The notes under the pieces were generated by a model that made no database searches, was not told where the DNA came from, and worked only from the letters and a program-made list of their open reading frames with translations. A stretch of DNA of 64,000 bases. It comes from Candidatus Daviesbacteria bacterium (GTDB lineage: Bacteria > Patescibacteriota > Microgenomatia > Daviesbacterales > UBA10151). The DNA is taken from positions 6,800-70,799 of the forward strand of contig JACPDA010000004.1 in assembly GCA_016184225.1 (NCBI GenBank), written 5' to 3'. Positions 8,503 to 50,734 of this stretch are shown one piece after another. The first letter of the stretch is position 1. Each line of letters begins with the position of its first letter. A program made the translations under genes and the position numbers.

Positions 8503-9249
8503 TTAAAGCAGCGGATCTATGACGGCCTGGAAGGCAGAATATGGTTGGGCGCCGACTATAATCGTACCGGTAATAGTGCCTGAGGGATCTGATTTTCCCA
8601 CAAAGAAACTCGGTGTGCCGGAAACTCCGGCCGCACTGCCATCAGCCACATCTTTTTTAATCTCTTCCGCATACTTTTCCGAATCAGCACAAGATTTCAA
8701 ATTTGCCTTGTTTAACCCCAAATCAGCAGCGAATTGGTAGACCTCGTCTTTTGTTAACCCGTTGCCGTTAGATTTGGTTTTGGTAAATATGCTGTTGTGG
8801 AATTTAAAGTAAGCGCTATCTCCCCCTTGTTCCTTAGCACAGTTGGCAGCCCCAGCTTCAAAGGTGGCCATGGGATCATGGAAAGGCAGAGGATAATCGC
8901 GAAAAACCATCTTCACTTTACCCGTATCTATGTAATCTTTTTTTAAAGAAGGGTAGACTTGGTCGAAGTGTCTTTTACAAAAAGGGCATTCATAATCAGA
9001 AAATTCTATCAAGGTTACTTTGGCATCTTTACTGCCCAAAACCGGATCATCATCTAAAGACACTTTGACTGAAGTTGGTTGCTGGGGAGCTTGTGGGACT
9101 TGCGGAGAAGCTACCGGGGCAGTGATTTTCGTACCGGCTGTCTTAGGGGCAATTTTAATAATTCCCCCGTGAATTAAGATAGCGATTGAAATAAGTACTG
9201 ATCCTAACAGAATAGACATCGGGATCGTTAAAAAGGAGTTGCGTTCCAT
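8503..9249 (-). CDS. membrane-anchored DsbA-like thiol:disulfide oxidoreductase
   Basis: N-terminal TM helix, Pro/Gln-rich linker, a CPFC active site and a DsbA-like fold region. Confidence 0.75.
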   Translation of the reverse strand: MERNSFLTIPMSILLGSVLISIAILIHGGIIKIAPKTAGTKITAPVASPQVPQAPQQPTSVKVSLDDDPVLGSKDAKVTLIEFSDYECPFCKRHFDQVYPSLKKDYIDTGKVKMVFRDYPLPFHDPMATFEAGAANCAKEQGGDSAYFKFHNSIFTKTKSNGNGLTKDEVYQFAADLGLNKANLKSCADSEKYAEEIKKDVADGSAAGVSGTPSFFVGKSDPSGTITGTIIVGAQPYSAFQAVIDPLL

Positions 9250-9284
9250 TGTCCTTTAGTCTAAAGAGAAAAATGATCACTGTC

Positions 9285-9450
9285 AAGAATGGAAACTTTT
9301 AGAAGCAGCGAAATCACAAGTAAACAAAAAATGTTGAGGATTTTGTGCTAACTGCCCCCATGCCATCAGATTAATGGTATCCACAAAATACTCACAAGCG
9401 AGCAAGTCTCTACTGTGCGAGCGATTTTTTGTACTGTGACGAGCTGCTTA
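9285..9450. repeat. intergenic repeat module of about 150 bp, copy 1 (related to 35915-36062; partial copy at 10812-10850)
   Basis: Shared blocks aaaaaatgttgaggattttgtgc ... ccacaaaat.ctcacaag.gagcaagt ... gtgcgagcgattttttg ... gacgagctgc. The module contains a conserved 12-bp stem (gaggattttgtg / cacaaaat.ctc). Confidence 0.6.
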
Positions 9451-9451
9451 C

Positions 9452-10027
9452 CTAATTATACTGATTTTGGGCTTTTTCTAAACCCTTTTCCAAAAGCAAA
9501 TTAAGCGCTTTGATTGCTTGTTTCATTATATGCTTAACCTGATGCTTTTCTGATTGCACAAAAGGCTCCAACACAAACTTTTCCACCACTCCTGTGGCCG
9601 GGCCAATTCCCAATCTCACTCTTATAAATTGGTCTGTCCCTAAGGCTGCAATAATAGATTCCACTCCATGATGCCCGGCTGCTGCCCCACCCATCCTGAT
9701 TTTAATTTTACCTAAAGGAAGGTCTAAATCGTCATGGACCACAATAAGGTCAGTAGTTGGTAGCTTGTAGTAAGTAGTCAGGAGTTTAATAGCCATACCA
9801 GAATTATTCATATAAGTTTGGGGTTTAGCCAGAATAAGTGACAAGTGATTAGTGCTAAGTGATAAGTCAAGGCGCAGAATTTCAGATTTAAACTTTTCTT
9901 TGTACTCCCACTTTGCACTTTGCACTTTGCACTTTGCACTTAACTCCTCCACCACCATAAAGCCTAAATTATGCCTGACACCAGCATATTTTTCTCCCGG
10001 GTTTCCCAGTCCCACTATTAGTTTCAC
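9452..10027 (-). CDS. pth: peptidyl-tRNA hydrolase carrying an in-frame repeat-derived insertion (KCKVQSAKW...)
   Basis: MKLIVGLGNPG...RHN start and an HDDLDL motif. The extra segment, relative to canonical Pth, is encoded by the TTTGCAC/TAAGTGC tandem repeats at 9844-9940. Confidence 0.9.
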   Translation of the reverse strand: MKLIVGLGNPGEKYAGVRHNLGFMVVEELSAKCKVQSAKWEYKEKFKSEILRLDLSLSTNHLSLILAKPQTYMNNSGMAIKLLTTYYKLPTTDLIVVHDDLDLPLGKIKIRMGGAAAGHHGVESIIAALGTDQFIRVRLGIGPATGVVEKFVLEPFVQSEKHQVKHIMKQAIKALNLLLEKGLEKAQNQYN

Positions 10028-10806
10028 TTCTTAAGTGCCTCCAGGATTTGCTCATGTATCAAACCATTTGAAGCTACAATATTTAATCTCTCCTTAGTCC
10101 AATCCGGCTCATTACCTGCAAAATCACTCACTTTCCCACCGGCTTCTCTGACAATTACCGCTCCTGCCGCAAAATCCCATTGCCATCCTTGAGCCACATA
10201 CCCGTCTAAAGCCCCTGTGCCAACTAGCGCCAAGATTCCTGCCGCCGGTCCGAACGAATAAGGATATCCCGCCTTCAAGGCCAATAGGTTAACATAACTT
10301 TCTATTTTTTGTTTCCGTCTAGCCTTATGGCCAAAATCCAGATCAATAACTGCCCCGTCAAGGTTTTTCTCCCGACTGACTCGAATAGTTTTGCCATTAA
10401 GATATGCCCCCAGACCTTCCTGGGCAAAATATAAATCCTGCGAGTAAACATCATTGATAACGCCTAGAATAGGCTTATTACTCTTTAACAGGCCGATTGA
10501 TACCGCAAAGAATGGGAGGCCATGCGCATAAGAGATAGTGCCATCCAAAGGATCAACAACCCAAGTATATTCGGATCCTTTATTTATTTTATTTTTTTCT
10601 TCTGCAATAATGTTATGTGTCGGAAAGTTTTTGGATAAGATCTCAACAATTTTTTCTTCTGATTCAAGATCTGCATATGTAGCAAAATCGCTTTTATCTT
10701 CATTTTTTAAGCTTAAGCTTAAACTCCTGCCGGAATATTTTTGTATTATTTTTCCAGCCTCTATAGCTGCCTGTTTGGCTACTTTTAAAAAATTATCTTC
10801 ACTCAT
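10024..10806 (-). CDS. inositol monophosphatase family protein (SuhB/ImpA-like)
   Basis: WVVDPLDGT metal-binding motif and the overall IMPase pattern. Confidence 0.8.
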   Translation of the reverse strand: MSEDNFLKVAKQAAIEAGKIIQKYSGRSLSLSLKNEDKSDFATYADLESEEKIVEILSKNFPTHNIIAEEKNKINKGSEYTWVVDPLDGTISYAHGLPFFAVSIGLLKSNKPILGVINDVYSQDLYFAQEGLGAYLNGKTIRVSREKNLDGAVIDLDFGHKARRKQKIESYVNLLALKAGYPYSFGPAAGILALVGTGALDGYVAQGWQWDFAAGAVIVREAGGKVSDFAGNEPDWTKERLNIVASNGLIHEQILEALKK

Positions 10807-10829
10807 AGATGTGGTCGCGCAAGCGGTTT

Positions 10830-11465
10830 TTACTGCCGTGACGAGCTAGCTTCTAATAAGTATATCACCTCTTTATCTGTCACAGGCTCAAATTGATGAT
10901 AAAACTGACCCACAGCCTGGAAATATTCAGGCGCCTCCAGTACTACACTCTGATCAACTTGCCCTTCCACCTTTCTTAGGGCATCTTGACTTGCAACAGG
11001 TACAGCCAATACTATCCTTGCTCCGTGTCTTTTTAGATATTTGATGGCTGAAAGAACTGTAGCTCCGGTGGCTATTCCATCATCTATCAAGATGGCCGTT
11101 TTGCCATTTACATCCAAGAGGGATCTACCGTTTCGATATAAATCTTCCCTTCTTTTAAGTTCTTTCCACTGATCGAGAACCTCTAGTTTCAGATCGTCAA
11201 TCTTAAGTCCTAAATCACTTAAAAGCCTATCTTCCCAGACCACTTCCCCGTCAGGATCAACTGCACCTAAAGCTAACTCCTCCTGACCAGGAGCACCAAT
11301 TTTGCGGGTGACTACAATATCCAAGGGCAAATTTAAATCTTTGGCAATTTCAGCAGCCACCACCACCCCGCCTCTGGGAATACCTAAAACAAGATCAGCT
11401 TTGATATCTTTCAATCTATTTGCCAGCAACTGCCCGGCAGATTGTCGATCCTTAAAGATCTTCAT
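10830..11465 (-). CDS. type I phosphoribosyltransferase-domain protein
   Basis: PRPP-binding loop ILIDDGIATGATV and N-terminal GIPRGG motif. Confidence 0.7.
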   Translation of the reverse strand: MKIFKDRQSAGQLLANRLKDIKADLVLGIPRGGVVVAAEIAKDLNLPLDIVVTRKIGAPGQEELALGAVDPDGEVVWEDRLLSDLGLKIDDLKLEVLDQWKELKRREDLYRNGRSLLDVNGKTAILIDDGIATGATVLSAIKYLKRHGARIVLAVPVASQDALRKVEGQVDQSVVLEAPEYFQAVGQFYHQFEPVTDKEVIYLLEASSSRQ

Positions 11466-11548
11466 AAATAGCTTTCAGTCATCAGCTATCAGCTTTCAGA
11501 CTTAAAATTGCAATAGTCTGACGACTGAAGACTGAAAGCTGACGACTA
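11466..11548. repeat. imperfect inverted repeat built from tcagct/ttcag units (related copy in frame inside the GT4 gene at 35241-35320)
   Basis: tcagtcatcagctatcagctttcagact...agtctgacgactgaagactgaaagctgacgac forms a long hairpin between two minus-strand genes. Confidence 0.6.
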
Positions 11549-11552
11549 TTTC

Positions 11553-12896
11553 CTAATCAAACAACCCCAACTGGGGAGCCTCCTCTGCTTCTTTGGCAAT
11601 CTCCTTCCCATGATCCCAAATCTTCACTATTCCATACACCCCATCATATCCCGGATCAATCACCAAATCTCCTTTTCTCACCTTTTCCACCCCTTCTGCC
11701 ACTTTATGTCCTGAAACTTTAGCAATTTCATCTGTTTTTATCTTGGTCAAAATTTTCATCTCATTCCCTAAGAAAGTTGTTAACTTTTTATACTCGTTTA
11801 GAACCTTTTGGGTTGTTGGGGCAGTTTCAAAAGCCTCAGCAATTATTTGTAAAAGCGGCACTAACATTCTATATCCAGCCCTTTCTGGAAACGCTCTACT
11901 TTTTATTAACCCTTGGACATTTTCAATTTTCAATTCTACATTCGATCGCGAAGCCATCGCTTCTACTCTTTCCATTACTCCCACGGTTAATCCCCTGCCA
12001 CAAACCGGGCACTTCTCCCCTTTTAGCTTAGTATCCTCCGGCGAATACTTCACATTACAACTGCGGTGTCCTGTGTAATGATATTTCCCCTCCTCCGGAT
12101 AAAATTCAATAGTACCTACTATTCCGTCATTGCGAGGAAGTTTACCCTGAGCTTGTCGAAGGGTGGCAATCTTGTTTGAAATAGCTTTCCATAAACCTTC
12201 GTATCTGTCTTCCAGATTACCCCCAAAAACCGTTGCCTCCCTGCCTAAATTAGGCAAAGAATGGGCATCAGAACAAGATATAATTGAGCGGTTGTCTAAC
12301 TCTTTAATCCGCCAGTTCATGGCCGGATCGCTGGACAACCCGGTTTCTATGGCATGAATATACTCTGTTAAATCTTCGAAGCAATCTTGCAAGGAGTTAT
12401 ACCCGGACTGCGAACCAAAAATGCCAAACCAGGGAGTCCAGGCATGGGCCGGCATAAAAATGACGTTTTGATCTATTTCCAAACACATCCTGAGCAATTC
12501 TTTAGAGGGAATTCCCACAATCGGCCGGCCGTCGGAGGAAAGGTTGGCTTTTTTTACCAGTAGGGCTTTTTGCAACTTCTCCACTGATTCAAACGAAGGC
12601 AGCATAATTACATTATGAATCCGGCGGACTGCGCCTTGGTGGGAATAAATCGAGGCCACTTCCACTGTTAAAACAAACTTAACTGCCGGATCTTTTTCAA
12701 AGCTTAAAAATCCCGAACCGTCATCTGTTAGCTGGCTTTTAAGCTCGGCAAACCAAAGGGGATGCAGACAGTCTCCTGTCCCCAAAACATCAATCCCTTT
12801 CAGCTTCCCCCATTCCACCAAATTAGGAACATTTAATGCTGGAGAACAGGCCCGGGAGTACCTGGAGTGAATATGCAAATCAGCTACATAGCCCAT
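11553..12896 (-). CDS. PHP-domain protein with a CPVCG zinc ribbon; EndoQ-like / TIGR00375-type
   Basis: N-terminal DLHIHS PHP metal-binding motif, a later CPVCGRG zinc finger, and about 447 aa. This matches my memory of the EndoQ family, but I have not verified it. Confidence 0.5.
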   Translation of the reverse strand: MGYVADLHIHSRYSRACSPALNVPNLVEWGKLKGIDVLGTGDCLHPLWFAELKSQLTDDGSGFLSFEKDPAVKFVLTVEVASIYSHQGAVRRIHNVIMLPSFESVEKLQKALLVKKANLSSDGRPIVGIPSKELLRMCLEIDQNVIFMPAHAWTPWFGIFGSQSGYNSLQDCFEDLTEYIHAIETGLSSDPAMNWRIKELDNRSIISCSDAHSLPNLGREATVFGGNLEDRYEGLWKAISNKIATLRQAQGKLPRNDGIVGTIEFYPEEGKYHYTGHRSCNVKYSPEDTKLKGEKCPVCGRGLTVGVMERVEAMASRSNVELKIENVQGLIKSRAFPERAGYRMLVPLLQIIAEAFETAPTTQKVLNEYKKLTTFLGNEMKILTKIKTDEIAKVSGHKVAEGVEKVRKGDLVIDPGYDGVYGIVKIWDHGKEIAKEAEEAPQLGLFD

Positions 12897-12932
12897 GCCC
12901 GCATTCTACCATATTAAATAACCAAGTACCTC

Positions 12933-13283
12933 TTGACTTATAGATTATACACCTGCTATAAATGGTTCATGATTGAGCGGGTCGGAGGTGTAATCAAAAA
13001 AGCAATAGAGCCACTTGTTAGGGTTGAAACCCAAACCTATGAAACTGCTGTTGCAAATCGCCTTGGCAGAATCGAACAGACAGAGACAAGGCGAGAATCT
13101 CTTATAGAAGAAAGTGTAAAAGGACAACCGAGAACAAGTGCTTATACCGAAGTTAGCGACGCCGCACTAGATTGGCTACACGCAACAAGCAGTGGTCTTG
13201 TGGCCGAAAGAAAAGCCATCTTATTAGGTCGCTTCGTCCTCAATTTACCATCTTACACATACTCGTGGCGTAACGCTAATTAA
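12933..13283 (+). CDS. hypothetical ORF in a 400-bp spacer; coding status doubtful
   Basis: Only the ORF track supports it; I recognise no motif. The region could equally be noncoding regulatory DNA or RNA. Confidence 0.2.
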   Translation: MTYRLYTCYKWFMIERVGGVIKKAIEPLVRVETQTYETAVANRLGRIEQTETRRESLIEESVKGQPRTSAYTEVSDAALDWLHATSSGLVAERKAILLGRFVLNLPSYTYSWRNAN

Positions 13284-13297
13284 ACTATTAATACTAT

Positions 13298-13819
13298 CTA
13301 TTCTTTCTTCTTTGCCATCCTTCTCTTAAAAAGATTCTCTCTAAACCCGCCTTCATTAACAAATTTTTCTTCTAACCATCTTAACTTTTGATCTAATAAA
13401 CGGTTGGTTTGGTTAATTAGGCAAATCATCGCATTTGCTGCGCTTTCTGCATTTTCAATATAATCTTTATAATTTTTATAATTATTATAATCGTTATATA
13501 CAAAGCCCCTGACTCTCCTGGCTTCCATAGAATCTTTCTCCCAAAATCCTAACCCATGCTGGCGCAAAAAATCCTGATAATCATTTAGGAGCTCTTCCAA
13601 GCTACCCCTTGCCACTCCTAAAAGTTTAATCCTTCCTTCTAGGCTCTTCTGTAAATACCCCTCAGCAATATTCTGTTTTCCGGATCTGGCAGCCTGCTCC
13701 ATCTGGTCTTTGGTTCTGGATTTGTAGTCAATATATTTTTGAACAAACTCAACAGTAAAATCATAAATAATTTCAGTTTGTTTAAAGAAAGGTAAATCTT
13801 TGTAGCCGCCGCTTGCCAT
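13298..13819 (-). CDS. four-helix-bundle protein (23S rRNA intervening-sequence protein family, PF05635-like)
   Basis: The QMEQAARSGKQNIAEGY segment matches the RRAA..NIAEG signature of this family. The gene contains an in-frame copy of a 33-bp AT-rich repeat that also occurs just upstream. Confidence 0.7.
   Translation of the reverse strand: MASGGYKDLPFFKQTEIIYDFTVEFVQKYIDYKSRTKDQMEQAARSGKQNIAEGYLQKSLEGRIKLLGVARGSLEELLNDYQDFLRQHGLGFWEKDSMEARRVRGFVYNDYNNYKNYKDYIENAESAANAMICLINQTNRLLDQKLRWLEEKFVNEGGFRENLFKRRMAKKKE
13464..13500. repeat. 33-bp repeat ttataatttttataaYtattataaYcgttatat, copy inside the CDS (encodes YNDYNNYKNYKDY)
   Basis: A second, near-identical copy lies at 13836-13871, in the gap between the ligase stop and this gene's start. 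Confidence 0.7.
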
Positions 13820-13870
13820 TTTGTTTTTATATAAATTTTATAATTTTTATAACTATTATAACCGTTATAT

Positions 13871-15619
13871 CTATTTCTTAAATTGAAGCTTATACATCTC
13901 AACCAACTCTTTAACAGTTGTAGCGTCTTCAGCGTGTTTATCAGAACCACGGAACTTGACCAACCTGGGAAATCTGAGGGCGTAACCGGGCTCTGAGCCC
14001 TTTTTTCCGGCAGTATGAACCGGGCTTCTTGTGATCTCATCTGCCAACACCTCAATCACTATCTTTGGTTCCACCCAAACACTCGGTGTAATGAGCGAGC
14101 TCACTCTGGCTGGTTTACTTTGCACTTTGAACTTTGCACTTTTCACTTTTATCTCCCTCCATTCTTCATCAGTTAAACCGGTGCCGATTTTAGAAACCGT
14201 CACGAATTCGTCTTTTCCCTTATCGTAAACACCCACCAACAAAGAACCAGCTCCGAACCCTGCCCGTTTCCCCCGGCCGAAGATATAGCCTAAAATTACG
14301 CAATCAATTGTGTCTTTGAGCTCTCCTGCCGAGTGTCTTTTTAGCTTGACCCAATTGAAATTTCTGGCTCCTGCCTCATATTTTGAATCAGGCCTTTTAC
14401 AAACAAGCCCTTCCAATCCCTTGGTAATTGCATCATCAAATAATTCAATAATCCGTTTTACTGACTTGGTAAACTCCCCGGGCTGCGCAAGTAAAACCGT
14501 ATCAGGGGTGATGACTTTTTTCAATTTTTCCATCCGGGCTCGGAGGGATAAGTCAATTAAGGATTTCCCATTTAAATACATAATGTCAAACACAAAAGCT
14601 TTTAAAGGTAAGCTTTTTGCCATCTCCTCAATGTTATATTTACGCCGTCTTTTAGTGGTTTCCTGGAAAGGCAAAAATTCCTCTGACTCCGGGTTAAAAG
14701 CTACTGCTTCCGAGTCCAAAATAATGCTGTCTGCTTTAACTTGTTTCAAAATCCCCTGGATAATCTCGGGAAACATGGGTGTAGTTTCCTCTAAATTCCG
14801 GGAAAACAGCCTGACTTTTTGACCTTGTTTGTGTATTTCAATCCTGAAACCATCATATTTATACTGAACATGTGCTTCGCCGCCAAATTTTTCTAAAATG
14901 GTATTGGCATCAGGCAAACGTTCTGCCAGCTGCGACCTGATGGGTCGACCCACTGTCACATCCAAGCTCCGCACTCCCTGAATTCCCTGACTCCATAATG
15001 TTTCCGCAATCACTCCTAAATCAGAAGTTTTATTGTAAGCTTCTTCCAGCTCTTTGCGCCTTTTCCGGTCCCCCAGCTTAGCCAGGGCAAAGCCGTCTAA
15101 CACCGTCGGATCCCCTATTCCCAACCTGGAAACACCCAGAGGAATCCTGACCAGATGTTTTGCCGAAACCGGATCCATCTGCTTTAGCAGACCGGAAAGA
15201 AGTTCCAATTTTTTCTCAACTGTCCCCTTCCCGGCAGTCCCGGCAATCTCTGTCAAAGTCTTAAATACATCTGTAATTGTCATTCTGGCTTGTCCAGAAT
15301 CGATTCTGGATGCGCTTTGCTTACCAGAATGACGTTGTGCCACAACCCCTAAGTCTCCTACCTGTCCATATTCTCTCAACACCTCTTCCCGCTCTACTCC
15401 ATAAGCTCTGGCAATAGATTGAGCCACCAACTTCTCGCTCATACCGATCTCAATCGGTTCATAAAAAGGCGCCACCCGGCCCTGGATTAAATAAACCACT
15501 TTGGCAATTTCCGCAGGTTTAACTTTGGAAAAAAGCTCTGCCAAAATATCAATTAAAGAGAGTCTGGAAGAAGTCTGTTCCAATTTTTCAAAATACTCTG
15601 TAAGTTTAGAAAATTTCAT
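13871..15619 (-). CDS. lig: ATP-dependent DNA ligase (LigI/LigB family)
   Basis: KYDGFRIEIHK (KxDG adenylation motif) and the downstream ligase motifs. The true start is probably MKFSKLTEYF near 15619. The 71-codon 5' extension in the ORF track runs through a MITE-like repeat and is likely not translated. Confidence 0.85.
   Translation of the reverse strand: MKFSKLTEYFEKLEQTSSRLSLIDILAELFSKVKPAEIAKVVYLIQGRVAPFYEPIEIGMSEKLVAQSIARAYGVEREEVLREYGQVGDLGVVAQRHSGKQSASRIDSGQARMTITDVFKTLTEIAGTAGKGTVEKKLELLSGLLKQMDPVSAKHLVRIPLGVSRLGIGDPTVLDGFALAKLGDRKRRKELEEAYNKTSDLGVIAETLWSQGIQGVRSLDVTVGRPIRSQLAERLPDANTILEKFGGEAHVQYKYDGFRIEIHKQGQKVRLFSRNLEETTPMFPEIIQGILKQVKADSIILDSEAVAFNPESEEFLPFQETTKRRRKYNIEEMAKSLPLKAFVFDIMYLNGKSLIDLSLRARMEKLKKVITPDTVLLAQPGEFTKSVKRIIELFDDAITKGLEGLVCKRPDSKYEAGARNFNWVKLKRHSAGELKDTIDCVILGYIFGRGKRAGFGAGSLLVGVYDKGKDEFVTVSKIGTGLTDEEWREIKVKSAKFKVQSKPARVSSLITPSVWVEPKIVIEVLADEITRSPVHTAGKKGSEPGYALRFPRLVKFRGSDKHAEDATTVKELVEMYKLQFKK
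15278..15333. repeat. MITE-like hairpin element (ends TGTCATTCTGG...CCAGAATGAC), in frame inside the ligase gene
   Basis: Terminal inverted repeats with an internal gattctgga block. It encodes RHSGKQSASRIDSGQARMT within the ligase. Confidence 0.75.
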
Positions 15620-15627
15620 TTTGTTTC

Positions 15628-15725
15628 TGTCATTGCGAGGATCCCGTACCGATTCTGGTGCGGGAGACGTAACAATCTTGATTGAGTTAAGATTCTGACG
15701 CTTACTTCGTTCGCTCAGAATGACA
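15628..15725. repeat. MITE-like element, long variant (TGTCATTGCGAGG...CTCAGAATGACA)
   Basis: Same terminal motif family. It lies at the ligase 5' end and upstream of the GGDEF gene. Confidence 0.7.
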
Positions 15726-15772
15726 ATAGTAGGATTGTAATAGATTCCAAAGCTATTGTAAAATACGCATCT

Positions 15773-16618: not shown

Positions 16619-16624
16619 AAGCTA

Positions 16625-17701: not shown

Positions 17702-17761
17702 TTTCGCTAGGGTTTAGGGGTTAGCGACTAGGGTATAGTAGAAAAAAATTTTGCTTTTTGA

Positions 17762-17817
17762 CTATACCCTATACCCTATACCCTATACCCTATACCCTAT
17801 ACCCTATACCCTATCTT
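17762..17817. repeat. tandem heptamer array (CCTATAC) x8
   Basis: Perfect 8-copy array in the spacer between fic and the PaaX-like gene. Confidence 0.9.
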
Positions 17818-17879
17818 CCCACATTTCCCGCAAAAAATCTAATTTGAATCTTGATGTACCAATTGCTTGTACGATCGCA

Positions 17880-19341: not shown

Positions 19342-19364
19342 CATTTATGTAGAATATTAACTAG

Positions 19365-22300
19365 TTATTGGGAAACATATTCATCCCAACTCTTGATTTT
19401 TAAATCCTCCATTTTCTTATTAGTTAATGCTGAAATTAAAAGTTCTGCTGCCTGTAAATTAGTTATCAGGGGTATTCCTAAATCAACACAAGTCCTCCTG
19501 ATAATAAACCCATCGGTTTCACCTTTTTTCGAACGGGGTTTGGAAATGTTTATCACTAAATCAATACCGTCTTGTTTTAACAGGTCCAAAACTGACGGGT
19601 GCTTTCTTTCCGAAATTTTAGAGACTCTGGTACTTTGAATATCATTCTTACTTAAAAACTCATGGGTCTGCGGTGTCGCATATATCTTAAAACCTAAGTA
19701 GAATAAATCCCTTGCAGACGAGAGCAAATCCAGTTTATTTTCTTCTCCGCCAATAGTTAATAAAACTGATTTTTGGGGCATCTTAAAACCGGTGGCCAGT
19801 ATGGCTTTAAGATAAGCTTCCTGCAGGTCATCACCAAAACAGGCCACCTCCCCAGTTGAAGACATCTCCACCCGAAGCCTTGGATCAGCTCCCTTAATCC
19901 GGCTAAAGGAAAACTGAGGAGCTTTTACCCCGACATAATCTAAGTCTAAGGTATTAAAGTCTCCCGATATCTTCTCCCCCAGCATCACCTGAGTTGACAT
20001 TTCCACAAAGTTATAGCCGGTTACTTTAGAAACAAACGGGAAAGAGCGGGAAGCGCGCAGGTTTAATTCAATCACCAAAACCTGATTATCTTTGGCTAAA
20101 AACTGGATATTAAAAGGACCGTTTATATTCAATGCCTGGAGAATCTTTCTGGTAGCATCCTTAACTTTTCTCACAGTTTCCAAATACAACCGCTGCGGCG
20201 GCAAAACTATGGTGGCATCCCCGGAGTGCACCCCGGCATTTTCCACATGCTCGGAGATGGCGTAAATTAGAAGCTGGCCATCCTGTCCCACCCCATCCAC
20301 CTCAATCTCTTTGGCTCCTTCCACAAATTTAGAGACAACCACCGGATGCTCTGCCGATATATCGGCTGCGCTTTTTAGCGCTCTTTTCAAATCAGTGCCG
20401 GAATATGCCACGTTCATGGCAGAACCTGATAAAACATACGAGGGCCTGATCAAAACTGGATAGCCTATTTTTCTGGCAAACTTAAGTGCCTCATCAGCAG
20501 TTTTCAAGCTCTGCCAATCCGGCTGCAGAATTCCCAGTTGATCCAGCAGTTTAGAAAACTTATCCCTATCCTCTGCCCGGTCAATGCTTTCCGGGGAAGT
20601 CCCCAGTATTTTATAACCGGCCCGGAAACAGTCCATTGCCAAATTATTGGGAACTTGCCCGCCAAAACCTAAGACAAGTGCTGAGTGCTTAGTGTTTAGT
20701 GTTGAGTTTTTCCAACTTTGCACTTTGAACTTTGCACTTTGCACTTCTATTTCATAGATATCACTCACCCGCTCAAAGGTCAGTTGCTCAAAGTACAACT
20801 TATCTGCCGAGTCGAAGTCAGTAGAAACAGTTTCCGGATTACAATTTATGATAATTGTTTCCAAGCCCCTACTTCTAAGTGTTTGCGCAGCTGTCACCGA
20901 GCACCAGTCAAACTCCACTGAGGAACCAATCCGATAAGGCCCGGAACCCAAGACGATTGCCTTTTGCTTCTTTTTGTCATCCTGGCTTGTCCAGGATCCT
21001 TGCTTTTTTGATTCTGGACGCACTTCGTTTGCCAGAATGACATTCTCTTTCTCCGTTTCATCTCCATGATATGTCAAATATAAATAATTCGTCTTGGCCG
21101 GATATTCTGCTGCCAGGGTATCAATATGTTTGACCTTCGGCACTATGCCATTCTTTTTCCTAAACTCCCTTACTTCTTCCTCCGTTTTTTTAAGCCCTTT
21201 AGCCAATATCTTATCTGAAAACCCCAACTTCTTAGCTTCTCTAACAATTTCTGACTGCAACCTGTTGCCTGTAACCTGTAACCTACCTTCAAACTTCACT
21301 ATTTCCTGAATCTGATACAAAAACCAAGGATCAATGCCGGTTGCCTTATAGACAGCCTCTACAGATTCGCCCTTGCCGAATCTTTTGGCAATCACAAATA
21401 GCCGCTCTGTTGTAGGTAAAAGTTTCGTGTCGTCAATACTGTTTTGCAGTAACCCATCTTGACCTGTTTCCAGCATCCTGATGGCTTTTTGCAGCACTTC
21501 CGGAAAACTTCGTCCGACAGCCATCACCTCTCCCACGCTTTTCATCTCCGAACCAATCGCCTCTTTTGCCCCCACAAATTTTTGCAAATCCCAGCGCGGG
21601 ATCTTAACCACTATATAGTCTAACGCCGGCTCAAAAAATGCCGAAGTTGACAGAGTCACGCTATTTTTTAACTCCGGCAGGTTATAACCTAAGGCAAGTT
21701 TGGCGGCAATGTAGGCCAAGGGGTACCCGGTAGCTTTTGAGGCCAAAGCAGAAGACCGGGACAACCTGGCATTTACTTCAATCACCCGGTAGTCATTATT
21801 TTTAGGATTTAAGGCAAACTGGATATTACATTCACCGACAATCCCTAAATGTTCAATCACCGCAAGAGAGATTCTGCGTAAAAAATGATACTGGTAATTA
21901 TTAAGAGTTTGGGAAGGAGCCACTACAATACTCTCTCCGGTATGGATGCCTAAAGGATCCATATTTTCCATATTACAAACAGTAATTTTGTTGCCTAAAT
22001 TGTCCCGGACTACTTCATACTCAACCTCTTTCCAGTGCTTTAAATACTCTTCTACAGCTATCTGGGGGGCCTGCTTCAAAGCTAAAGTCACCATCTGGAT
22101 AAGCTCTTTTTCATTTTCTATAACTCCGGACCCCAATCCTCCCAAGGAAAAACCGCTTCTTATGAGTAAAGGGTATCCTAACGTTTCTGCAATTTTTAGG
22201 GCCTGATCTAGTGAGCGGGCAAACCCGCCTTTGGGAACCTTAACACCTATCTTGGCCAGCTCCTTAGCAAACAGTTCCCTGTCTTCTGTAATCCGAATAC

Positions 22301-22726: not shown

Positions 22727-23845
22727 TTATATTAAATCCAAAAATTCATCAAATAAATAACCGCCCTCTGTCGGACCCGGGTTGGCTTCCGGGTGAAATT
22801 GTACTGCTATAAAAGACTTTTTATTGTGCCTAATCCCCTCATTTGTGCCGTCATTTAAATTAACAAACCACTCTAGCCACTCTTTTCCTAAAGATTTCAT
22901 ATCCACCGCGAAACCATGATTTTGACTGGTTATGATAGCTTTCTTGTTATTTTGATCTAGTACAGGCTGATTTTGGCTTCTATGACCGAACTTTAGTTTG
23001 TAAGTTTCTCCTCCAGCTGCCAAAGATAAAATCTGGCTGCCTAAACAAATACCAAAAGTGGGGACACCTGCATCAAGCAACTGCTTAACAGTTTCTATAG
23101 TGGCTTTAGCCTGTTTTGGATCTCCCGGGCCGTTGGAAATTAGAACTCCGTCAAATCCGCCAGCTGGCGGACTAGCTATCGGATTAAAATCCCAGGGCAC
23201 CCTGGTTACCCTGACTCCTCTTTTAACTAAACTCCTGATAATATTTTCCTTGGCTCCGCAATCAATTAAGACTATATTTTTCTTGTTCATCCTGAGCGAA
23301 GTCGAAGGACCATACACCTCCACCTTTTTACAACTAACATAAGGCAAGATATTCTCTTTATTCGGATCATAAATAGAGTCGCTAGTCGCTAGAGTCGAGA
23401 GTCTAGACTGTTGATTCCTAGACTCTAGATTCTTGACTCTAGACTCTACTTCTATTCGACCAAGCATCACTCCATGCTTCCGAAGCTTAGTAGTCAACTC
23501 CCTGGTATCAATCCCCTGCAAAGCAGGTATCCCTTCATCTTTCAGCCACTCCCCCAAAGTTTTCTGGCTTTCAAAATGTGACGGGTGGTCAATATAGTTT
23601 TGCACAATTAACCCCTTAACCTGAATTTTTTTTGATTCCCAAAACTTTTTTCCCGGCACCCCGTAATTTCCCTGCAAGGGATAAGTCAAAACTAGGATTT
23701 GGCCAAAATAAGATGGGTCTGTCAAGGATTCCGGGTATCCCACCATACCGGTATTAAAAACCACCTCGCCTGAGGTAGCTACCTCTTTCCCAAAGCTTTC
23801 TCCTAAAAAAACTGTCCCATCGGACAGAATCAGTCTCCCTTGCAT
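22727..23845 (-). CDS. carA: carbamoyl-phosphate synthase small subunit (glutamine amidotransferase)
   Basis: Class I GATase triad region (GICLGSQ...HPE). It contains an in-frame PPAGG palindrome and the SRLSTLATS repeat module. Confidence 0.9.
   Translation of the reverse strand: MQGRLILSDGTVFLGESFGKEVATSGEVVFNTGMVGYPESLTDPSYFGQILVLTYPLQGNYGVPGKKFWESKKIQVKGLIVQNYIDHPSHFESQKTLGEWLKDEGIPALQGIDTRELTTKLRKHGVMLGRIEVESRVKNLESRNQQSRLSTLATSDSIYDPNKENILPYVSCKKVEVYGPSTSLRMNKKNIVLIDCGAKENIIRSLVKRGVRVTRVPWDFNPIASPPAGGFDGVLISNGPGDPKQAKATIETVKQLLDAGVPTFGICLGSQILSLAAGGETYKLKFGHRSQNQPVLDQNNKKAIITSQNHGFAVDMKSLGKEWLEWFVNLNDGTNEGIRHNKKSFIAVQFHPEANPGPTEGGYLFDEFLDLI
23381..23460. repeat. 80-bp repeat module (gtcgctagtcgctagagtcgagagtctagac...) shared with the fpg gene at 29805-29885
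   Basis: Near-identical blocks encode ...SRLSTLATS... in frame in both CarA and Fpg. Confidence 0.8.
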
Positions 23846-29313: not shown

Positions 29314-30293
29314 AGGTAGGTGCCGCGGCCGCCGAGTGAGATTTTTTTAATCTCTGTCCCGCAAACTTTACAAGGGTGTTTATCGCGCCAGTAGACAAAG
29401 GCATAATCTAAAAAATAACCTTTGTGTCCTTCCGCATCTACAAAATGTGCCCTGGTTGAACCTCCGTGCTTTATTCCTTCCCTTAAAGCCCTGACTACCC
29501 CACGGTGTAGAGCTTGGAATTTCCTATCAGTCAATGTAACCACTTTAGTCCGAGGATCTATTCCAGCCATAAAACAGGCCTCATTAGAGTAGATATTTCC
29601 CACTCCTGATACCACGCTTTGGTCCATAATAGCCACCTTAACTGGCATTTTCTTATGTTTCAATAAATTCTGCTTAAGAACCTGCCATGTAAACCCTTTT
29701 TCTAAGGGCTCCGGTCCAAGATTCTTGATTGAACTGTCCACTGTAACCTGTTGCCTGTCCACTACCTTCACCCATCCAAACTTCCTCTGGTCATTAAAAT
29801 ATAAGTGGCTAGTCGCTAGAGTCGAGAGTCTAGACTTTTCATATTTTTTTCCTAGACTCTTACCACTTGACTCTAGACTCTGAAGTGTAAATATCACCCT
29901 GGTATGAGAGTTTGGCATCTTACCTAACATATCCTCAGTCGGATGTCCGCCAATAAATTTATTGTCACCTGTCGCCTGTTGCCTACCGCCTTCCCATATC
30001 AGTTGGCCTGACATCTTCATATGAAAAAGAAGAGTTATCAGGTTAGAGGTTACAGGTTTCAGTTTTGAAACTTTTTTAACTGTCCCCTGTCCACTGTACC
30101 CTGTACCCTCTGCGAGGTCTATACCGAGCAGCTTCGCTCTTCTCCAAACTTTGAGTACTTTTTGTCCCTGGGCCAAATTAGGGTTTCCAATAAAAGATTT
30201 AGGAGATAAAATCTGGATCTTTTGGATCTTCAGTCCAATAATTTTATTTTGTAGACCCAGTCTAATGACCTCAACTTCGGGAAGTTCTGGCAT
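29286..30293 (-). CDS. mutM: formamidopyrimidine-DNA glycosylase (Fpg/MutM) with repeat-derived in-frame insertions
   Basis: N-terminal MPELPEVE and a C-terminal zinc finger C..C...CPHCQ. The protein is about 335 aa versus about 270 canonical; the extra segments are encoded by GTTACAG repeats and the SRLSTLATS module. Confidence 0.85.
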   Translation of the reverse strand: MPELPEVEVIRLGLQNKIIGLKIQKIQILSPKSFIGNPNLAQGQKVLKVWRRAKLLGIDLAEGTGYSGQGTVKKVSKLKPVTSNLITLLFHMKMSGQLIWEGGRQQATGDNKFIGGHPTEDMLGKMPNSHTRVIFTLQSLESSGKSLGKKYEKSRLSTLATSHLYFNDQRKFGWVKVVDRQQVTVDSSIKNLGPEPLEKGFTWQVLKQNLLKHKKMPVKVAIMDQSVVSGVGNIYSNEACFMAGIDPRTKVVTLTDRKFQALHRGVVRALREGIKHGGSTRAHFVDAEGHKGYFLDYAFVYWRDKHPCKVCGTEIKKISLGGRGTYLCPHCQKAV

Positions 30294-39675: not shown

Positions 39676-41889
39676 TCAAGGATTTAATAGTTTCATTTCT
39701 CCCCAGTTCTTACCAACTTTGAGGTCAACTATGACAGGCACTGAAAGTTTGAGAGCATTTTCCATTTTTTCTTTCACCATTTTCCCCACTTCGCGAACGC
39801 TTCGCGGGGTGCATTCAAACAAAAGCTCATCATGAACCTGGAGAATAAGTGAACAGTGCTGAGTGCTAAGTGCTAAGTCCTTTTTCCCACTTTGCACTTT
39901 TCCCTTTGCACTTAACACTTTCCCAATCTCCACCATGGCCTTTTTAATCATATCAGCCGCCGTGCCTTGGACCGGATGGTTGACTGCAGCTCGCTCCCCG
40001 GCTGCCCTGATCATCCGATTCCCCACTTTTAACTCCGGAATATACCTTTTCCTGCCCCAAATGGTCTCCACAAAACCGTTCTCATAGCCAAATGCCAAAG
40101 TATCTTCCGTCCATTTCCTGACTTTGGGAAATTCGGCAAAATACTCATCAATATACTGGCGGGCCAACTCATATGGCACTTCCAGTTGGCGGGAGAGCGC
40201 ATGCGGCCCCTGGCCATAAAGGGTGGCAAAATTCATGGTTTTACCCACCATCCGCTGCTCTCTTGTCACCTTTTCCAAAGAGACATTAAAGATTTTTGAA
40301 GCAGTTAAGGCATGAATATCTACTCCTTCCTTAAAAGCTTTTTTCAAACCCGGGTCATCTGCCAAATGGGCCATAATCCGCAGTTCAATCTGTGAGTAAT
40401 CAGCTGTTAGCAACACCTTACCTTTGGGGGCCACAAATGCTTTCCGAATTTCTCCTCCGGCCTCGCCTTTAATGGGAATATTTTGTAAATTAGGGTCTTT
40501 GGAAGAAAGCCTGCCGGTAGCAGCCCCTTCTACATTAAAAGTGGAATGGATCCTACCGGTGCTATCTACAAATTTAGGCAGGGCATCAATATAGGTGGAA
40601 ACCAGCTTAAATAATTGCCGGTATTCCAGCATCAGTGGCACTGCCGGATGGGTTAGCGCTAACTCACGCAGGGTGGCTTCATCAGTGGAACGGCCGGTTT
40701 TGGTTTTTCTCACCACCGGCAGCTTTAGCTCATCAAACAGCACTTCTGACAACTGCTTTGGGCTGTTCAGATTGAACTGATGTCCTACTTTTGAGTAAAT
40801 CTCCTTTTCAATCTTGGCTAATCTGGCTTTTAGCTGTTTGCCAAACCTGCTTAAAAACTTCAGGTCAATTAATACCCCGGCCTCTGACATTCTTTTAAGA
40901 ACAGGCTCTACCTGATGATCCAAATCTGCTGTTTGCTGGTTTTGTGTCATTCTGGCTTGTCCAGAATCCTCTTCTTTAGATTCTGGAGTCCTCACTGCGT
41001 TCGTCCCCAGAATGACATTTTGGGAACCGGAAACCCTGGCTATCAAACTTTTGAATTCGAGTTCTTCAAACAACTTAACCACTTTTTCTTTATCAAAATC
41101 GTGCACTATACATTCTTTCAAATTAAGCTTAATTGGTGCTTTTAAATCCAAAGTAGCCAGTCTTTTGCTCATCACGGCAGATTCTGCCCCCTCGGAAAGC
41201 AGTGTTTGCATCCTCTCCGGCAAGGTTTTCAGATTTTCAGATTTGTAAATATTTTCAACTGAACCAAACTGGTGAATCAATTTAGTGGCTGTGACATCAC
41301 CAATTCCCGGCACCCCGGGAATATTATCCGAGGCATCCCCGGAGAGCCCTTTATAATCAGTTAATTGTTTTGGGAAAAAGCCATATTTGGCCACAAACTC
41401 CTCCAGTCCATATAATCCTACATCTGCCAGGGTTTTTTTGGGCATAAACACCTTAACTTTCTTATCAATCAGCTGCATGATATCCCGATCCCCGGTCACA
41501 ATAATAGTTTCCAAATCCGTTTCTTTCTCTGTTTGCTTTGCCAAGGTTCCGATTAAATCATCTGCCTCATAACCTGCCAGCTTAAACTCCGGAATATTAA
41601 AAGCTTTAGTTATCTCATGCACCCTTTTGTATTGACCGGATAAACCCTCATCAGTGGCAGTCCGGGTGGCTTTATACTGGGTATAAGCTTGATGCCGGAA
41701 AGTCGGACCCTTTTCATCCCAGGCAATAGCCAAATACCGCGGGTGCAGCTCCGAAATCACCCTTAAAACCATGGAGGAAAAGCCGTATACGGCATTGACC
41801 AACTCACCCGAGGAGGTAGTAAAAGGCGGTGTGGCATGATAGGCTCGGTGCAACAGGGCATTCCCATCCACTAATACTAAACGTTTCAT
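39676..41889 (-). CDS. polA: DNA polymerase I (5'-3' exonuclease plus polymerase domains; short, 737 aa)
   Basis: 5' nuclease motifs at the N-terminus and polymerase motifs A, B and C at the C-terminus. A MITE-like element and a heptamer-repeat block are inserted in frame in the inter-domain region. Confidence 0.9.
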   Translation of the reverse strand: MKRLVLVDGNALLHRAYHATPPFTTSSGELVNAVYGFSSMVLRVISELHPRYLAIAWDEKGPTFRHQAYTQYKATRTATDEGLSGQYKRVHEITKAFNIPEFKLAGYEADDLIGTLAKQTEKETDLETIIVTGDRDIMQLIDKKVKVFMPKKTLADVGLYGLEEFVAKYGFFPKQLTDYKGLSGDASDNIPGVPGIGDVTATKLIHQFGSVENIYKSENLKTLPERMQTLLSEGAESAVMSKRLATLDLKAPIKLNLKECIVHDFDKEKVVKLFEELEFKSLIARVSGSQNVILGTNAVRTPESKEEDSGQARMTQNQQTADLDHQVEPVLKRMSEAGVLIDLKFLSRFGKQLKARLAKIEKEIYSKVGHQFNLNSPKQLSEVLFDELKLPVVRKTKTGRSTDEATLRELALTHPAVPLMLEYRQLFKLVSTYIDALPKFVDSTGRIHSTFNVEGAATGRLSSKDPNLQNIPIKGEAGGEIRKAFVAPKGKVLLTADYSQIELRIMAHLADDPGLKKAFKEGVDIHALTASKIFNVSLEKVTREQRMVGKTMNFATLYGQGPHALSRQLEVPYELARQYIDEYFAEFPKVRKWTEDTLAFGYENGFVETIWGRKRYIPELKVGNRMIRAAGERAAVNHPVQGTAADMIKKAMVEIGKVLSAKGKVQSGKKDLALSTQHCSLILQVHDELLFECTPRSVREVGKMVKEKMENALKLSVPVIVDLKVGKNWGEMKLLNP
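40945..41017. repeat. MITE-like element, in frame in the polA linker
   Basis: TGTCATTCTGGCTTGTCCAGAATC...CCCCAGAATGACA encodes ...TPESKEEDSGQARMTQNQQ... Confidence 0.75.
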
Positions 41890-49741: not shown

Positions 49742-50734
49742 TTAAAAGTAATCCAATTTCATTGCCTTTTTCACTTCTGCCAATGTCTTCTGGGCTTCAA
49801 TTCTTACTTTCTCTGTCCCCTCTTTTAAGATCCGCTCCACCAAACCTGGCTCTTTTTCTAACTTATCTCGCCTTTGGCGGATCGGATCCAGGAAATTATT
49901 CAAAACCTGGGCCAGGTACTTTTTCACCTCAATATCTCCCACTTGGCCTTTTGTATATTCTTCTTTTAGACTTTGCACTTTACCCTTATCGCTTTGCACT
50001 GAAAATGCATCTAGGTAAGTAAATACCGGATTTCCTTCTACTGTTCCAGGATCTGTAGAATGAATCCTTTTAGGGTCTGTATACATACTCATTACTTTTT
50101 TCTCTACTTCTCCGGGAGAATCTGTCAAAAAGATGGCGTTCCCTAAAGATTTGCCCATTTTAGCCTGGCCATCTGTACCTGGCAAAGTCGGCACCTCTCC
50201 TATCAAAGGCTCAGGAATAGGAAAAACTTCGCCGTAAAGGTTATTAAACTTAAGGGCAATATCCCTGGCAAATTCCACATGAGATTTTTGATCCTTCCCT
50301 ACCGGCACCAGATTTGCCCTAGGGGCCAAAATATCTGCTGCCATGAGGATTGGATAATAAAACAACCCCACTGTATCCTGTTCTCTGGCATCAAGTTTTT
50401 CTTTTAAAGCCGGCTGCCTGGCGATCAGCGGACGGGAAGTCAAAACACTTAAATAATAGGCAAGCTCGGTTATCTCCGGAACTTTGGATTGCAGGAAAAA
50501 AAAGACCTTTTTAGGATCCAACCCCACAGATAAATAACCCAACATTAACCCTTTGATATTTTTTTCCAACTCGGCAGTTTTATCAAAATGGGTGGTTAAA
50601 GCATGTAGATCTGCGATGAAAACATGTGTCTCATACTCATCCTGCAACTTCACTCTATTTTTAAGCGAGCCAATATAATTTCCCAAATGGAAACTGTCAT
50701 AAGTCGGCCTATCCCCTGTTAATATTCTTTTCAT
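49742..50734 (-). CDS. trpS: tryptophanyl-tRNA synthetase
   Basis: HIGH-like FHLGNYIG and KMGKS (KMGKSLGN) motifs. It contains an in-frame heptamer repeat block. Confidence 0.9.
   Translation of the reverse strand: MKRILTGDRPTYDSFHLGNYIGSLKNRVKLQDEYETHVFIADLHALTTHFDKTAELEKNIKGLMLGYLSVGLDPKKVFFFLQSKVPEITELAYYLSVLTSRPLIARQPALKEKLDAREQDTVGLFYYPILMAADILAPRANLVPVGKDQKSHVEFARDIALKFNNLYGEVFPIPEPLIGEVPTLPGTDGQAKMGKSLGNAIFLTDSPGEVEKKVMSMYTDPKRIHSTDPGTVEGNPVFTYLDAFSVQSDKGKVQSLKEEYTKGQVGDIEVKKYLAQVLNNFLDPIRQRRDKLEKEPGLVERILKEGTEKVRIEAQKTLAEVKKAMKLDYF

Follow-up and report, generated by a model that had tools for sequence, protein, structure and literature searches.

Tandem repeats with a 7-nt unit are over-represented in bacteria, where PMC4679880 and PMC4692102 (both citing Mrazek 2007) describe them as mostly intergenic and suggest polymerase slippage as their source. 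Examples include the GGGAATC repeats of Xanthomonas and the GGGGAYT repeats of Nostoc (PMC4692102) as well as the TAACTGA repeats of Beggiatoaceae (PMC4679880). Palindromic repeats that lie in frame within housekeeping genes have been described in Rickettsia as the Rickettsia palindromic elements (RPE; Ogata et al. 2000, as summarized in PMC10969869). Here we analyzed a 64-kb stretch of DNA, termed the window, from a Candidatus Daviesbacteria genome (Microgenomates, Candidate Phyla Radiation or CPR), the tiny, gene-dense genome of a groundwater bacterium. Arrays of the heptamer AGTGCAA/ACTTTGC are found in this window within the genes for peptidyl-tRNA hydrolase (pth), an ATP-dependent DNA ligase, carB, polA, and trpS. 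The feature is real, statistically solid, and ordinary in kind, namely heptamer simple-sequence repeats (SSRs). What is unusual is the location and behavior of these repeats, which are translated, paired as hairpins, and rewritten again and again at the same permissive positions in the essential proteins of a CPR lineage.

The heptamer content of the window was compared with that of other repeat classes and of shuffled sequence. Tandem Repeats Finder (TRF) reported 22 period-7 arrays in the window, including seven of the AGTGCAA family (9834-9867, 9909-9941, 14117-14149, 20677-20707, 20715-20746, 39855-39878, and 39888-39921) with copy numbers of 3.4 to 4.9 in the head-to-tail arrangement of heptamer SSRs. 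A period scan detected 6 period-7 arrays versus 0.0 in shuffles and 0 to 1 for the other periods (4 to 12). The two-unit motif ACTTTGCACTTTGC (≤3 mismatches) was matched 24 times versus 8.75 ± 2.8 expected from dinucleotide shuffles and the inverted unit AGTGCTAAGTGCTA was matched 21 times versus 4.2 expected, a 3- to 5-fold enrichment of the motif and its inverted partner. The predominantly intergenic location typical of published heptamer SSRs was not found, with 19 of the 22 arrays inside open reading frames (ORFs), a share that matches the window coding fraction of 0.87. Period-7 repeats were shown to be the dominant repeat class in this DNA and not to be excluded from ORFs. The five AGTGCAA-type loci are as follows, with the accession of each encoded protein (exact NCBI matches, all encoded on a single contig of 769,731 bp).

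pth (MBI2196026), 9833..9943, minus strand: paired arrays, two complementary arms around a native segment
ATP-dependent DNA ligase gene (MBI2196031), 14114..14149, minus strand: single array with no partner arm, no hairpin, and no added length
carB (MBI2196036), 20676..20747, minus strand: compact hairpin insert of arm, loop, and inverted arm
polA (MBI2196058), 39850..39921, minus strand: compact hairpin insert between the helix 'MVEIxK' and the motif-C strand 'C-x-L-I-L-Q-V-H-D-E'
trpS (MBI2196068), 49964..50002, minus strand: degenerate 5-unit array, not an insertion

All five host ORFs are intact, and their identities were confirmed against solved structures. The initial annotation of this DNA had reported the arrays at these positions, and the sequences were verified at all five loci, with trpS the weak case. 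It had further described each locus as a composite of inverted blocks inserted in frame; the inverted blocks were recovered at pth, carB, and polA, which form hairpins, but not at the ligase gene and trpS, which have one arm and no hairpin, and the insertion was confirmed for carB and polA but not for the ligase gene and trpS, whose lengths are unchanged relative to their orthologues, with pth a special case in which the arms flank a native segment. The K-C/F-K-V-Q-S-A-K-like peptides that it listed were found throughout, as all five arrays read as (S)AK(C/F/G)KVQS-type. For comparison we used two syntenic Daviesbacteria loci (L119 and L120), a close relative (L121, PolA 88% identical), and orthologue sets of 121 PolA (Daviesbacteria-like), 110 TrpRS, and 53 Pth (Daviesbacteria, 181 to 229 aa). 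Protein clusters at 90% identity offered no strain variants, the five host proteins being singletons or members of a cluster that otherwise holds only a fragment.

Division of 7 by 3 leaves a remainder of 1, and for this reason the 7-aa repeat read from a heptamer array does not change with the frame; for the coding-strand unit AGTGCAA (GCAAAGT), three successive units are read in three frames to give AKCKVQS. None of the seven codons of (GCAAAGT)n is a stop in any frame, and thus the entry frame is immaterial and only total length matters. The inserted length as a whole has to be divisible by three, which is true of every intact ORF (e.g., 42 nt for carB versus L120). The stricter proposal that retained copies come in multiples of three units did not hold, as (i) every array has 4 to 5 whole or partial units; and (ii) the PolA variable segment, defined as the residues between the motifs ADMIKxAM and LQVHDEL, spans 12 to 48 aa in the 121 orthologues with a flat distribution of lengths modulo 7. 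A rule of multiples of 21 nt was likewise rejected by the lack of a modulo-7 pattern in these 121 PolA proteins, despite the 42 nt of the carB insert and the 63 nt of the polA Lys-Cys segment.

The codons of the arrays bear marks of selection. At phase 0 the arm-2 units read ACT-AAT (pth), ACT-AAG (carB), and ACT-CAG (polA), where the family unit ACTTAGC would give ACT-TAG and thus a stop; this same unit is kept at other phases in arm 2 of pth and polA. At phase 1 the arm-1 unit would read AAG-TGC-AAA and encode Cys; TTC (ligase, carB), GGA (polA), or GGT (trpS) is present instead, so that the Cys is mutated at four of the five loci and kept only in pth. This removal of stop and Cys codons exactly where they would fall in frame indicates that the arrays are translated and under purifying selection. 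An identical 24-mer, including a variant unit, is common to the ligase and carB arrays, and selection at the Cys position can also account for this match.

Among the five loci, only carB and polA, as aligned with their homologues, contain true in-frame insertions. In carB, arm 1 (units AGTGCAA, AGTGCAA, AGTTCAA, and AGTGCAA) encodes EVQSAKFKVQS and is followed by the loop TTGGAAAAACTCA and by arm 2 (ACTCAAC, ACTAAAC, ACTAAGC, ACTCAGC, and ACTTGT), which encodes STLNTKHSAL and continues into native A-L-V-L codons. The window CarB is longer than human CPS1 by 18 aa, than the L120 protein by 14 aa, and than the L119 protein ('IEKGSLVLG') by about 17 to 18 aa, with the excess located exactly at the hairpin. 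In polA, arm 1 (AGTGTTA, AGTGCAA, AGGGAAA, AGTGCAA, and AGTGGGA) encodes KVLSAKGKVQSG with LSAKGKVQSG within it, the loop is AAAAAGG, and arm 2 (ACTTAGC, ACTTAGC, ACTCAGC, and ACTGTTC) encodes DLALSTQHCS and merges with native C-S-L-I-L codons. Compared with Taq polymerase, the window PolA is 15 aa longer at the loop before motif C, and the insert adds 15 to 18 aa overall. The hairpins had predicted folding energies of -23.0 kcal/mol (z-score -3.49) for carB and -25.6 kcal/mol (z-score -3.37) for polA. Target-site duplications were not found at the carB and polA boundaries, and inverted arms were present at three of the five loci.

The pth locus differs in that its two arms are separated by a 41-nt native segment encoding the conserved W..KFKSEI. 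Arm 1, (AGTGCAA)x4 followed by AGTGGGA, is located at about 9906-9944 and encodes LSAKCKVQSAKW (aa 29-40), which contains SAKCKVQSAK; with 4.7 perfect units (a 33-nt perfect tract), it is the only array among the AGTGCAA loci that is not short and imperfect. Arm 2 (ACTTATC, ACTTAGC, ACTAATC, ACTTGTC, and ACTTATT, at about 9831-9868) encodes DLSLSTNHLSLI (aa 54-65) and merges with native S-L-I-L codons. The mRNA hairpin had a minimum free energy of -33.8 kcal/mol (z-score -2.36). An AlphaFold2 model of Pth (predicted local distance difference test or pLDDT score of 90.6) puts arm 1 in the loop that follows helix 1 and assigns arm 2 to the tip of the β-hairpin formed by residues 48-69, each with a pLDDT of about 78. 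The total length of the window Pth equals that of Mycobacterium tuberculosis Pth. Within the 53 Daviesbacteria orthologues, short proteins (181 aa) lack both arms, and many others have arms of the same length and different sequence. Four arm families were found at these two positions, and within each family the two arms are complementary to one another; the AGTG/CACT blocks of the window and the AGGG/CCCT blocks of the L119 family represent a compensatory difference repeated over units. Predicted duplex energies were about -21 to -31 kcal/mol for arms paired with their own partner versus about -5 to -12 kcal/mol for armless orthologues, with cross-family pairs intermediate, and this matrix gives moderate support to a co-evolution of the pth arms.

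In the ligase gene and trpS, native sequence appears from the orthologue alignments to have been overwritten by heptamer-periodic DNA at constant length. The ligase array (AGTGAAA, AGTGCAA, AGTTCAA, AGTGCAA, and AGTAAA) encodes KVKSAKFKVQSK at aa 491-502 (KVKSAKFKVQS), with an RNA fold z-score of +0.5. Orthologues have segments of the same length at this site, including HKRADKIKVDH (5 loci), KVKGEKLKVKS (L119), and KVKSKKLEVKN (L147), the latter two being likewise 7-periodic in their DNA. More distant orthologues (KEKTKGLEVDH) blur the ancestral state, and replacement at this site may have recurred independently. The trpS array (AGTGCAA, AGCGATA, AGGGTAA, AGTGCAA, and AGTCTAA) encodes SVQSDKGKVQSLK; two of its five units are perfect, no call was made by TRF, and no hairpin was predicted (RNA fold z-score 0.0). 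The window TrpRS is only 2 aa longer than the Deinococcus radiodurans TrpRS II structure, and the 15-aa segment that includes the array is of equal length in 107 of the 110 orthologues. This segment is occupied by different heptamer families: L252 has (AAATCTC)x5, L251 has (CAAACTA)x4.5, and L253 shares the AGTGCAA type with the window. Relatives without the expansion, which the initial annotation had proposed to look for, were found for carB, polA, and pth; the ligase and trpS sites are replaced at constant length.

The contents of the orthologous sites were the most informative finding. At the PolA site, about 30% of the 121 orthologues are without an insert, and the rest carry at least 8 unrelated peptide types. 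When the DNA of five PolA orthologues was inspected, five different heptamer-periodic hairpins were found, with a self-identity at period 7 of 0.59 to 0.72 versus 0.16 to 0.41 at other periods. Even L121, the closest relative, has a wholly different heptamer hairpin at this site. A conserved linker, the case that would have spoken against repeat expansion, was not observed, since orthologues do not share the peptide and have other heptamer families or nothing at the same sites. The arrays run in register into conserved flanking codons and can overwrite them: in L254 the last units of the polA array (ACCTGTA, ACCTGTA, and ACCTTAT) are in register with TGT-AAC-CTT-ATT, in L255 a perfect (AATTCTC)x4 changes the conserved Cys to Ser, and across the 121 orthologues there is a correlation between the heptamer family at the PolA site and the residue that follows the conserved Cys. 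That the PolA segment is equally long in the window and P0126 was discarded as a signal, given that 14 of the 121 orthologues share that length across at least 7 families.

Within the population the arrays were constant. Independent Logan assemblies (consensus sequences, evidently of the same population) matched the window with 100% identity across the polA hairpin in 6 cases and across the trpS array in 7, and no repeat-number polymorphism was detected at the consensus level across either. These identical arrays in independent assemblies also led us to reject an assembly artifact for polA and trpS. Five Logan contigs that reach pth (L136 to L140, window 9912-12102) all end at 9912, inside the perfect (CACTTTG)x4.7 tract. 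These ends are uninformative on variation because a k-mer assembler breaks at a perfect repeat of ≥31 nt, and they mean that perfect heptamer arrays fragment metagenome assemblies at coding positions. Turnover between relatives and stability within the population are thus both shown.

Other properties of the polymerase were recorded. The window PolA (39676-41889) is only 737 aa, with 5′-nuclease and polymerase domains that align to Taq, and its interdomain region (about aa 285-322) is too short for a 3′-5′ exonuclease domain and houses an SGQARMT element of a second repeat family (see below). Two Daviesbacteria-like PolA proteins, P0148 (1164 aa) and P0172 (1153 aa), contain intein and homing-endonuclease domains (PF14528, PF14890, and PF05204). 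These are inserted immediately ahead of the conserved ADMIKKAM and lie upstream of the hypervariable heptamer site by a few residues.

The occurrence of the AGTGCAA family beyond the window was also examined. A search for (ACTTTGC)x3 in 185,579 species genomes returned at least 118 loci in dozens of phyla. Among the matches listed, many non-CPR arrays were outside a long open frame, although the length of the open frame is not decisive in high-GC genomes. In-frame (GCAAAGT)n, read as SAKCKVQSAK or SKFKVQS, was found among CPR matches in genes for IscS, UvrB, LeuRS (twice), RuvC, RecG, a SpoU methylase, TopA, and GatB, and also in genes for HrpA and a Bacteroidales surface protein, all from unrelated genomes (loci L068, a Parcubacteria LeuRS, L031, L036, L081, L082, L084, L110, L093, L027, L063, and L080). 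In viral contigs, heptamers with the base composition of ACTTTGC in scrambled order had 2, 5, and 19 matches as x3 arrays, compared with 4 for (ACTTTGC)x3. The scrambled heptamers being equally common, the ACTTTGC unit is not special, its recurrence across phyla fits a convergent birth of repeats, and a widespread, horizontally spread (ACTTTGC)n element was rejected on this viral-contig comparison. In 560 kb of unselected CPR-like loci, 10 perfect period-7 arrays of diverse units were detected versus 0 to 1 for other periods.

The window also contained heptamer repeats with other units, including GGTACAG/CTGTAAC, CTAGACT, and GTCAGCT in further genes. Such families form hairpins in fpg, carA, and the GT4 glycosyltransferase gene as well as in intergenic DNA. 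A second, unrelated palindromic family was present in addition.

fpg, 30033..30113, minus strand: heptamer hairpin of GGTACAG / CTGTAAC units encoding AEGTGYSGQGTVKKVSKLKPVTSNLIT, +22 aa, absent from L121
fpg, 29808-29885: second heptamer array, +12 aa, missing or different in L121
carA, 23375..23449, minus strand: (CTAGACT)x8 array encoding VESRVKNLESRNQQSRLSTLATSDS, located in the linker that joins the CPSase small-chain domain to the GATase domain
Intergenic, 11470..11547, no strand assigned: heptamer-array hairpin of AGCTTTC / CTGAAGA units, a non-coding counterpart of the same architecture
GT4 glycosyltransferase gene, 35245-35304 and 35091-35114; carB, 21255-21284; and 54198-54221: in-frame heptamer arrays or hairpins of other unit families
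GATTCTGGACAAGCCAGAATGAC family, 15251-15334 (ligase), 40918-41001 (polA), 20955-21038 (carB), 33999-34058 (glpX, FBPase), and about 24800-24840 (non-coding): palindromic copies

The peptide family of the carA array VESRVKNLESRNQQSRLSTLATSDS also fills the PolA site in other Daviesbacteria (P0143, P0165, P0200, and P0219). The intergenic hairpin at 11470..11547, which was identical in the Logan contigs L136 and L137, had an RNA fold of -33.5 kcal/mol (z-score -4.5). No perfect heptamer tract of the window is longer than (CTATACC)x7.6 at 17762-17814, which is intergenic; a Fic-domain gene (16625-17701) lies on one side of it and an ORF (17880-18383) that has a PaaX_M/Cas2-like domain on the other. 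The second palindromic family, with the core GATTCTGGACAAGCCAGAATGAC, is read in frame as 'RPES..DSGQARMT', ESKKQGSWTSQDD, or DSGQVPMESRTLDRVGARMT; L121 has a conserved polA copy and no FBPase copy, and L120 has no carB copy. Between the ligase gene and an unannotated 447-aa ORF lies an ORF (13298-13819) that weakly matches the family of 23S rRNA intervening-sequence proteins, and a similar gene adjoins polA in L255.

We favor, with confidence and doubt in about equal measure, the explanation that heptamer SSR hairpins are born locally by slippage and template switching and are then filtered by protein-level selection. Replication slippage or transient misalignment would copy a native heptamer (e.g., NCA-CTT, encoding x-Leu at the start of a β-strand) out of register, and this copying would yield an in-frame gain or a constant-length 'overwriting'. 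Fold-back (quasipalindrome) template switching would make the complementary arm and keep re-matching it, and selection would purge outcomes that are out of frame, contain a stop, or damage the protein. Arrays would in this way arise and turn over locally in coding DNA, often as imperfect hairpins with the purine-rich arm first. As part of the same evenly weighted explanation, arrays may persist only where the peptide is harmless, such as in surface loops, at a β-hairpin tip, or in an interdomain linker. The arrays look like tolerated by-products of repeat-prone DNA copying rather than genetic switches, and we saw no evidence that they are transposons.

Several observations weigh against local birth. 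The same unit family occurs at five loci within 64 kb, the ligase and carB arrays have an identical 24-mer, and composite 'arm-KK-arm' peptides recur in different genes and genomes, all of which looks like copy-and-paste; convergent seeding together with Cys avoidance may not fully explain this recurrence. Each +7 step of slippage shifts the frame of an essential gene, which is lethal, such that simultaneous or multi-unit events have to be postulated. The hairpin inserts of PolA cluster at one size (a variable segment of 29 to 32 aa), as a discrete element would. The purine-rich arm is 5′ in 27 loci versus 2 reversed among the 118 matches listed, a polarity that simple slippage does not predict. 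On pth, RNAalifold gave no usable consensus structure (-0.49 kcal/mol) and was uninformative for covariation because the arms differ in length and register. The three array-bearing ligase sequences were not grouped in a neighbor-joining tree, which was based on only 211 columns. As the family recurrence, canonical PolA hairpin size, polarity, and lethal +7 intermediates are poorly explained by local slippage and template switching, a mobile or gene-conversion component stays a serious rival.

One form of this rival, which we consider unlikely although of real weight, is that the arrays are selfish miniature mobile hairpins resembling MITEs (small transposable elements with inverted repeats), RPE, or the doublets of repetitive extragenic palindromic sequences (REP) known as REPINs. 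Several heptamer-defined families would be copied by a trans-acting enzyme or by short-patch gene conversion, with copies surviving only if in frame in tolerant protein loops. The shared family and 24-mer noted above would follow, as would (i) the presence of ESRVKSQ..RLSTLATS, GQGT..KK..NLKPVT, and SVVSRQSSD..LKADSERS both in different window genes and at the PolA site of other Daviesbacteria; (ii) the presence or absence of inserts between close relatives at carB and fpg (+22 aa); and (iii) the roughly canonical insert size at the PolA site; the RPE of Rickettsia housekeeping genes provide a precedent (Ogata 2000, as cited in PMC10969869). However, discrete insertion with empty orthologous sites was seen for carB and polA, while the ligase and trpS segments were replaced without length change and the pth arms enclose 41 nt of native conserved coding sequence. 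A target-site duplication, conserved termini, or a conserved loop was not apparent, the loops being native sequence in pth, TTGGAAAAACTCA in carB, and AAAAAGG in polA, and the arrays are in register with conserved native codons. A Pfam scan of 47 of the 56 window ORFs of ≥100 aa detected no transposase-like domain (the nine ORFs left out include the five host genes, which were identified otherwise), and none of the scanned ORFs had a domain like that of the REP-associated tyrosine transposases (RAYTs). The abundance of scrambled heptamers in viral contigs means that recurrence across phyla needs no mobility. We regard as less probable still, and rather doubtful, that a nucleic-acid structure or binding platform in mRNA or DNA is selected with the peptide as a by-product. 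It could make translation pause at domain boundaries, affect RNase processing or the stability of the mRNA, or offer tandem sites for an oligonucleotide-binding-fold protein of the cold-shock type that binds one heptamer each. The long-range pth hairpin, whose two positions are kept across lineages that differ in having four arm sequences, the fold z-scores of -2.4 to -3.5 (pth, carB, and polA), the purine-arm-first polarity (27 versus 2 among the matches listed), and the placement at loops and linkers are consistent with such a role, and CspB binding to heptamer repeats is discussed in PMC4679880. Conversely, about 30% of PolA and many Pth orthologues lack any insert, the ligase and trpS arrays form no hairpin, and the stems are broken every 4 to 6 bp; the tolerant-loop location is equally expected from protein-level filtering, and template switching can maintain arm matching mutationally. 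A preferred CspB heptamer contains CTTTG, which we take as a lead only. Rfam covariance models had no match in the window besides two tRNAs that reached the gathering score, on which basis a known RNA family was rejected, and a consensus terminator scan of 9000-24000 (a range that does not extend to the polA hairpin) made no call at the pth or carB hairpins, which argues against a terminator function for these two.

The initial annotation likened the arrays to phase-variable contingency loci, in which a change in heptamer copy number would switch genes or vary the protein. A unit that is not a multiple of 3 does shift the frame with each one-unit change, and the perfect 4.7-unit tract of pth, where five Logan contigs stop at 9912, could hide variation. 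We nevertheless find this analogy highly improbable, as the hosts are essential single-copy housekeeping genes (Pth, DNA ligase, CarB, PolA, and TrpRS), assemblies of different runs agree on the polA array (6 assemblies) and the trpS array (7), and most arrays are short and imperfect; the assembly identity together with the essential hosts argues against contingency loci. In addition, the contig breaks are the normal behavior of k-mer assemblers at a perfect repeat of ≥31 nt, and the arrays are positioned mid-gene in loops, whereas a position close to the 5′ end of a gene for a surface protein or for restriction-modification was not seen. A more speculative idea, to which we attach little credence, is that Daviesbacteria have a length-conserving, templated 'overwriting' that turns short stretches of essential genes heptamer-periodic and keeps the paired arms complementary. 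Polymerase or primase behavior, a hairpin-targeting enzyme, or retroelement-derived single-stranded DNA would be candidates for it, with the same reservation. If this were true, one permissive loop would be filled in turn by peptide families that are unrelated (at least 8 at the PolA site and 3 in the TrpRS segment) while the rest of the protein stays 75 to 90% identical, and a dedicated activity behind it would represent a previously undescribed mode of protein-sequence turnover.

These repeats show that 'junk' repeat dynamics, which are normally intergenic, can extend to essential genes where spacer DNA is nearly absent from a genome. Repeats of 7 nt are unusually suited to coding DNA because they give the same peptide in every frame. 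The hot spots of loop rewriting fall in proteins with solved homologues (the PolA loop before motif C, the Pth β-hairpin, the 15-aa TrpRS segment, and the CarA linker) and could serve as natural maps of insertion tolerance. The arrays explain many odd low-complexity CPR peptides such as SAKCKVQSAK, call for caution in CPR gene annotation, alignment trimming, and phylogenomics, and provide a system for studying how slippage and template switching build coding hairpins.

Quasipalindrome template switching and transient-misalignment (dislocation) mutagenesis are established replication-error mechanisms. Like the changes observed in the window, they produce multi-base, length-neutral alterations that match arm to arm or a sequence to its neighbor 7 nt away; they are known for single mutations in model bacteria, and to our knowledge they have not been described as building or maintaining lineage-wide families of coding hairpins. 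When compared with SSR contingency loci (Haemophilus, Neisseria, and Moraxella), the window arrays are similar in being intra-ORF tandem repeats with a unit that is not a multiple of three. However, the former are long perfect tracts in dispensable surface-protein or restriction-modification genes and vary in the population, whereas the latter are mostly short and imperfect, have essential hosts, and show no variation in 6 to 7 assemblies (polA and trpS). The REP/REPIN sequences with RAYT transposases (PMC3116915) resemble the window hairpins in having two inverted short repeats, a hairpin, and many dispersed copies, but are extragenic, have a fixed sequence of about 20 to 25 nt, and are RAYT-linked rather than intragenic, periodic 7-nt arrays. 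The nearest counterparts are the RPE and the heptamer repeats of cyanobacteria. The RPE, too, are palindromic, occur in frame in unrelated housekeeping genes of a reduced genome as several families, add translated peptides at tolerated surface positions, and differ in presence or absence among relatives. RPE behave as discrete insertions of about 100 to 150 bp with a conserved consensus and encoded peptide, in contrast to the 35- to 110-nt heptamer arrays of the window, which have no conserved loop or termini and may flank native sequence (pth) or overwrite it (ligase and trpS). The heptamer long SSRs, including the short tandemly repeated repetitive (STRR) sequences of cyanobacteria (Mazel 1990; Mrazek 2007), share with the window arrays the tandem 7-nt units, with period 7 by far the commonest, as well as many unit variants per genome, occasional inverted stem-loop pairs, rapid change between relatives, and slippage as the proposed origin. 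Unlike the published examples, which are mostly intergenic and under-represented in coding DNA, the window arrays are in ORFs in 19 of 22 cases and are translated; and while TAACTGA has stop codons in one orientation, the arrays of the window are shaped by the avoidance of stop and Cys codons and replace native codons at constant length.

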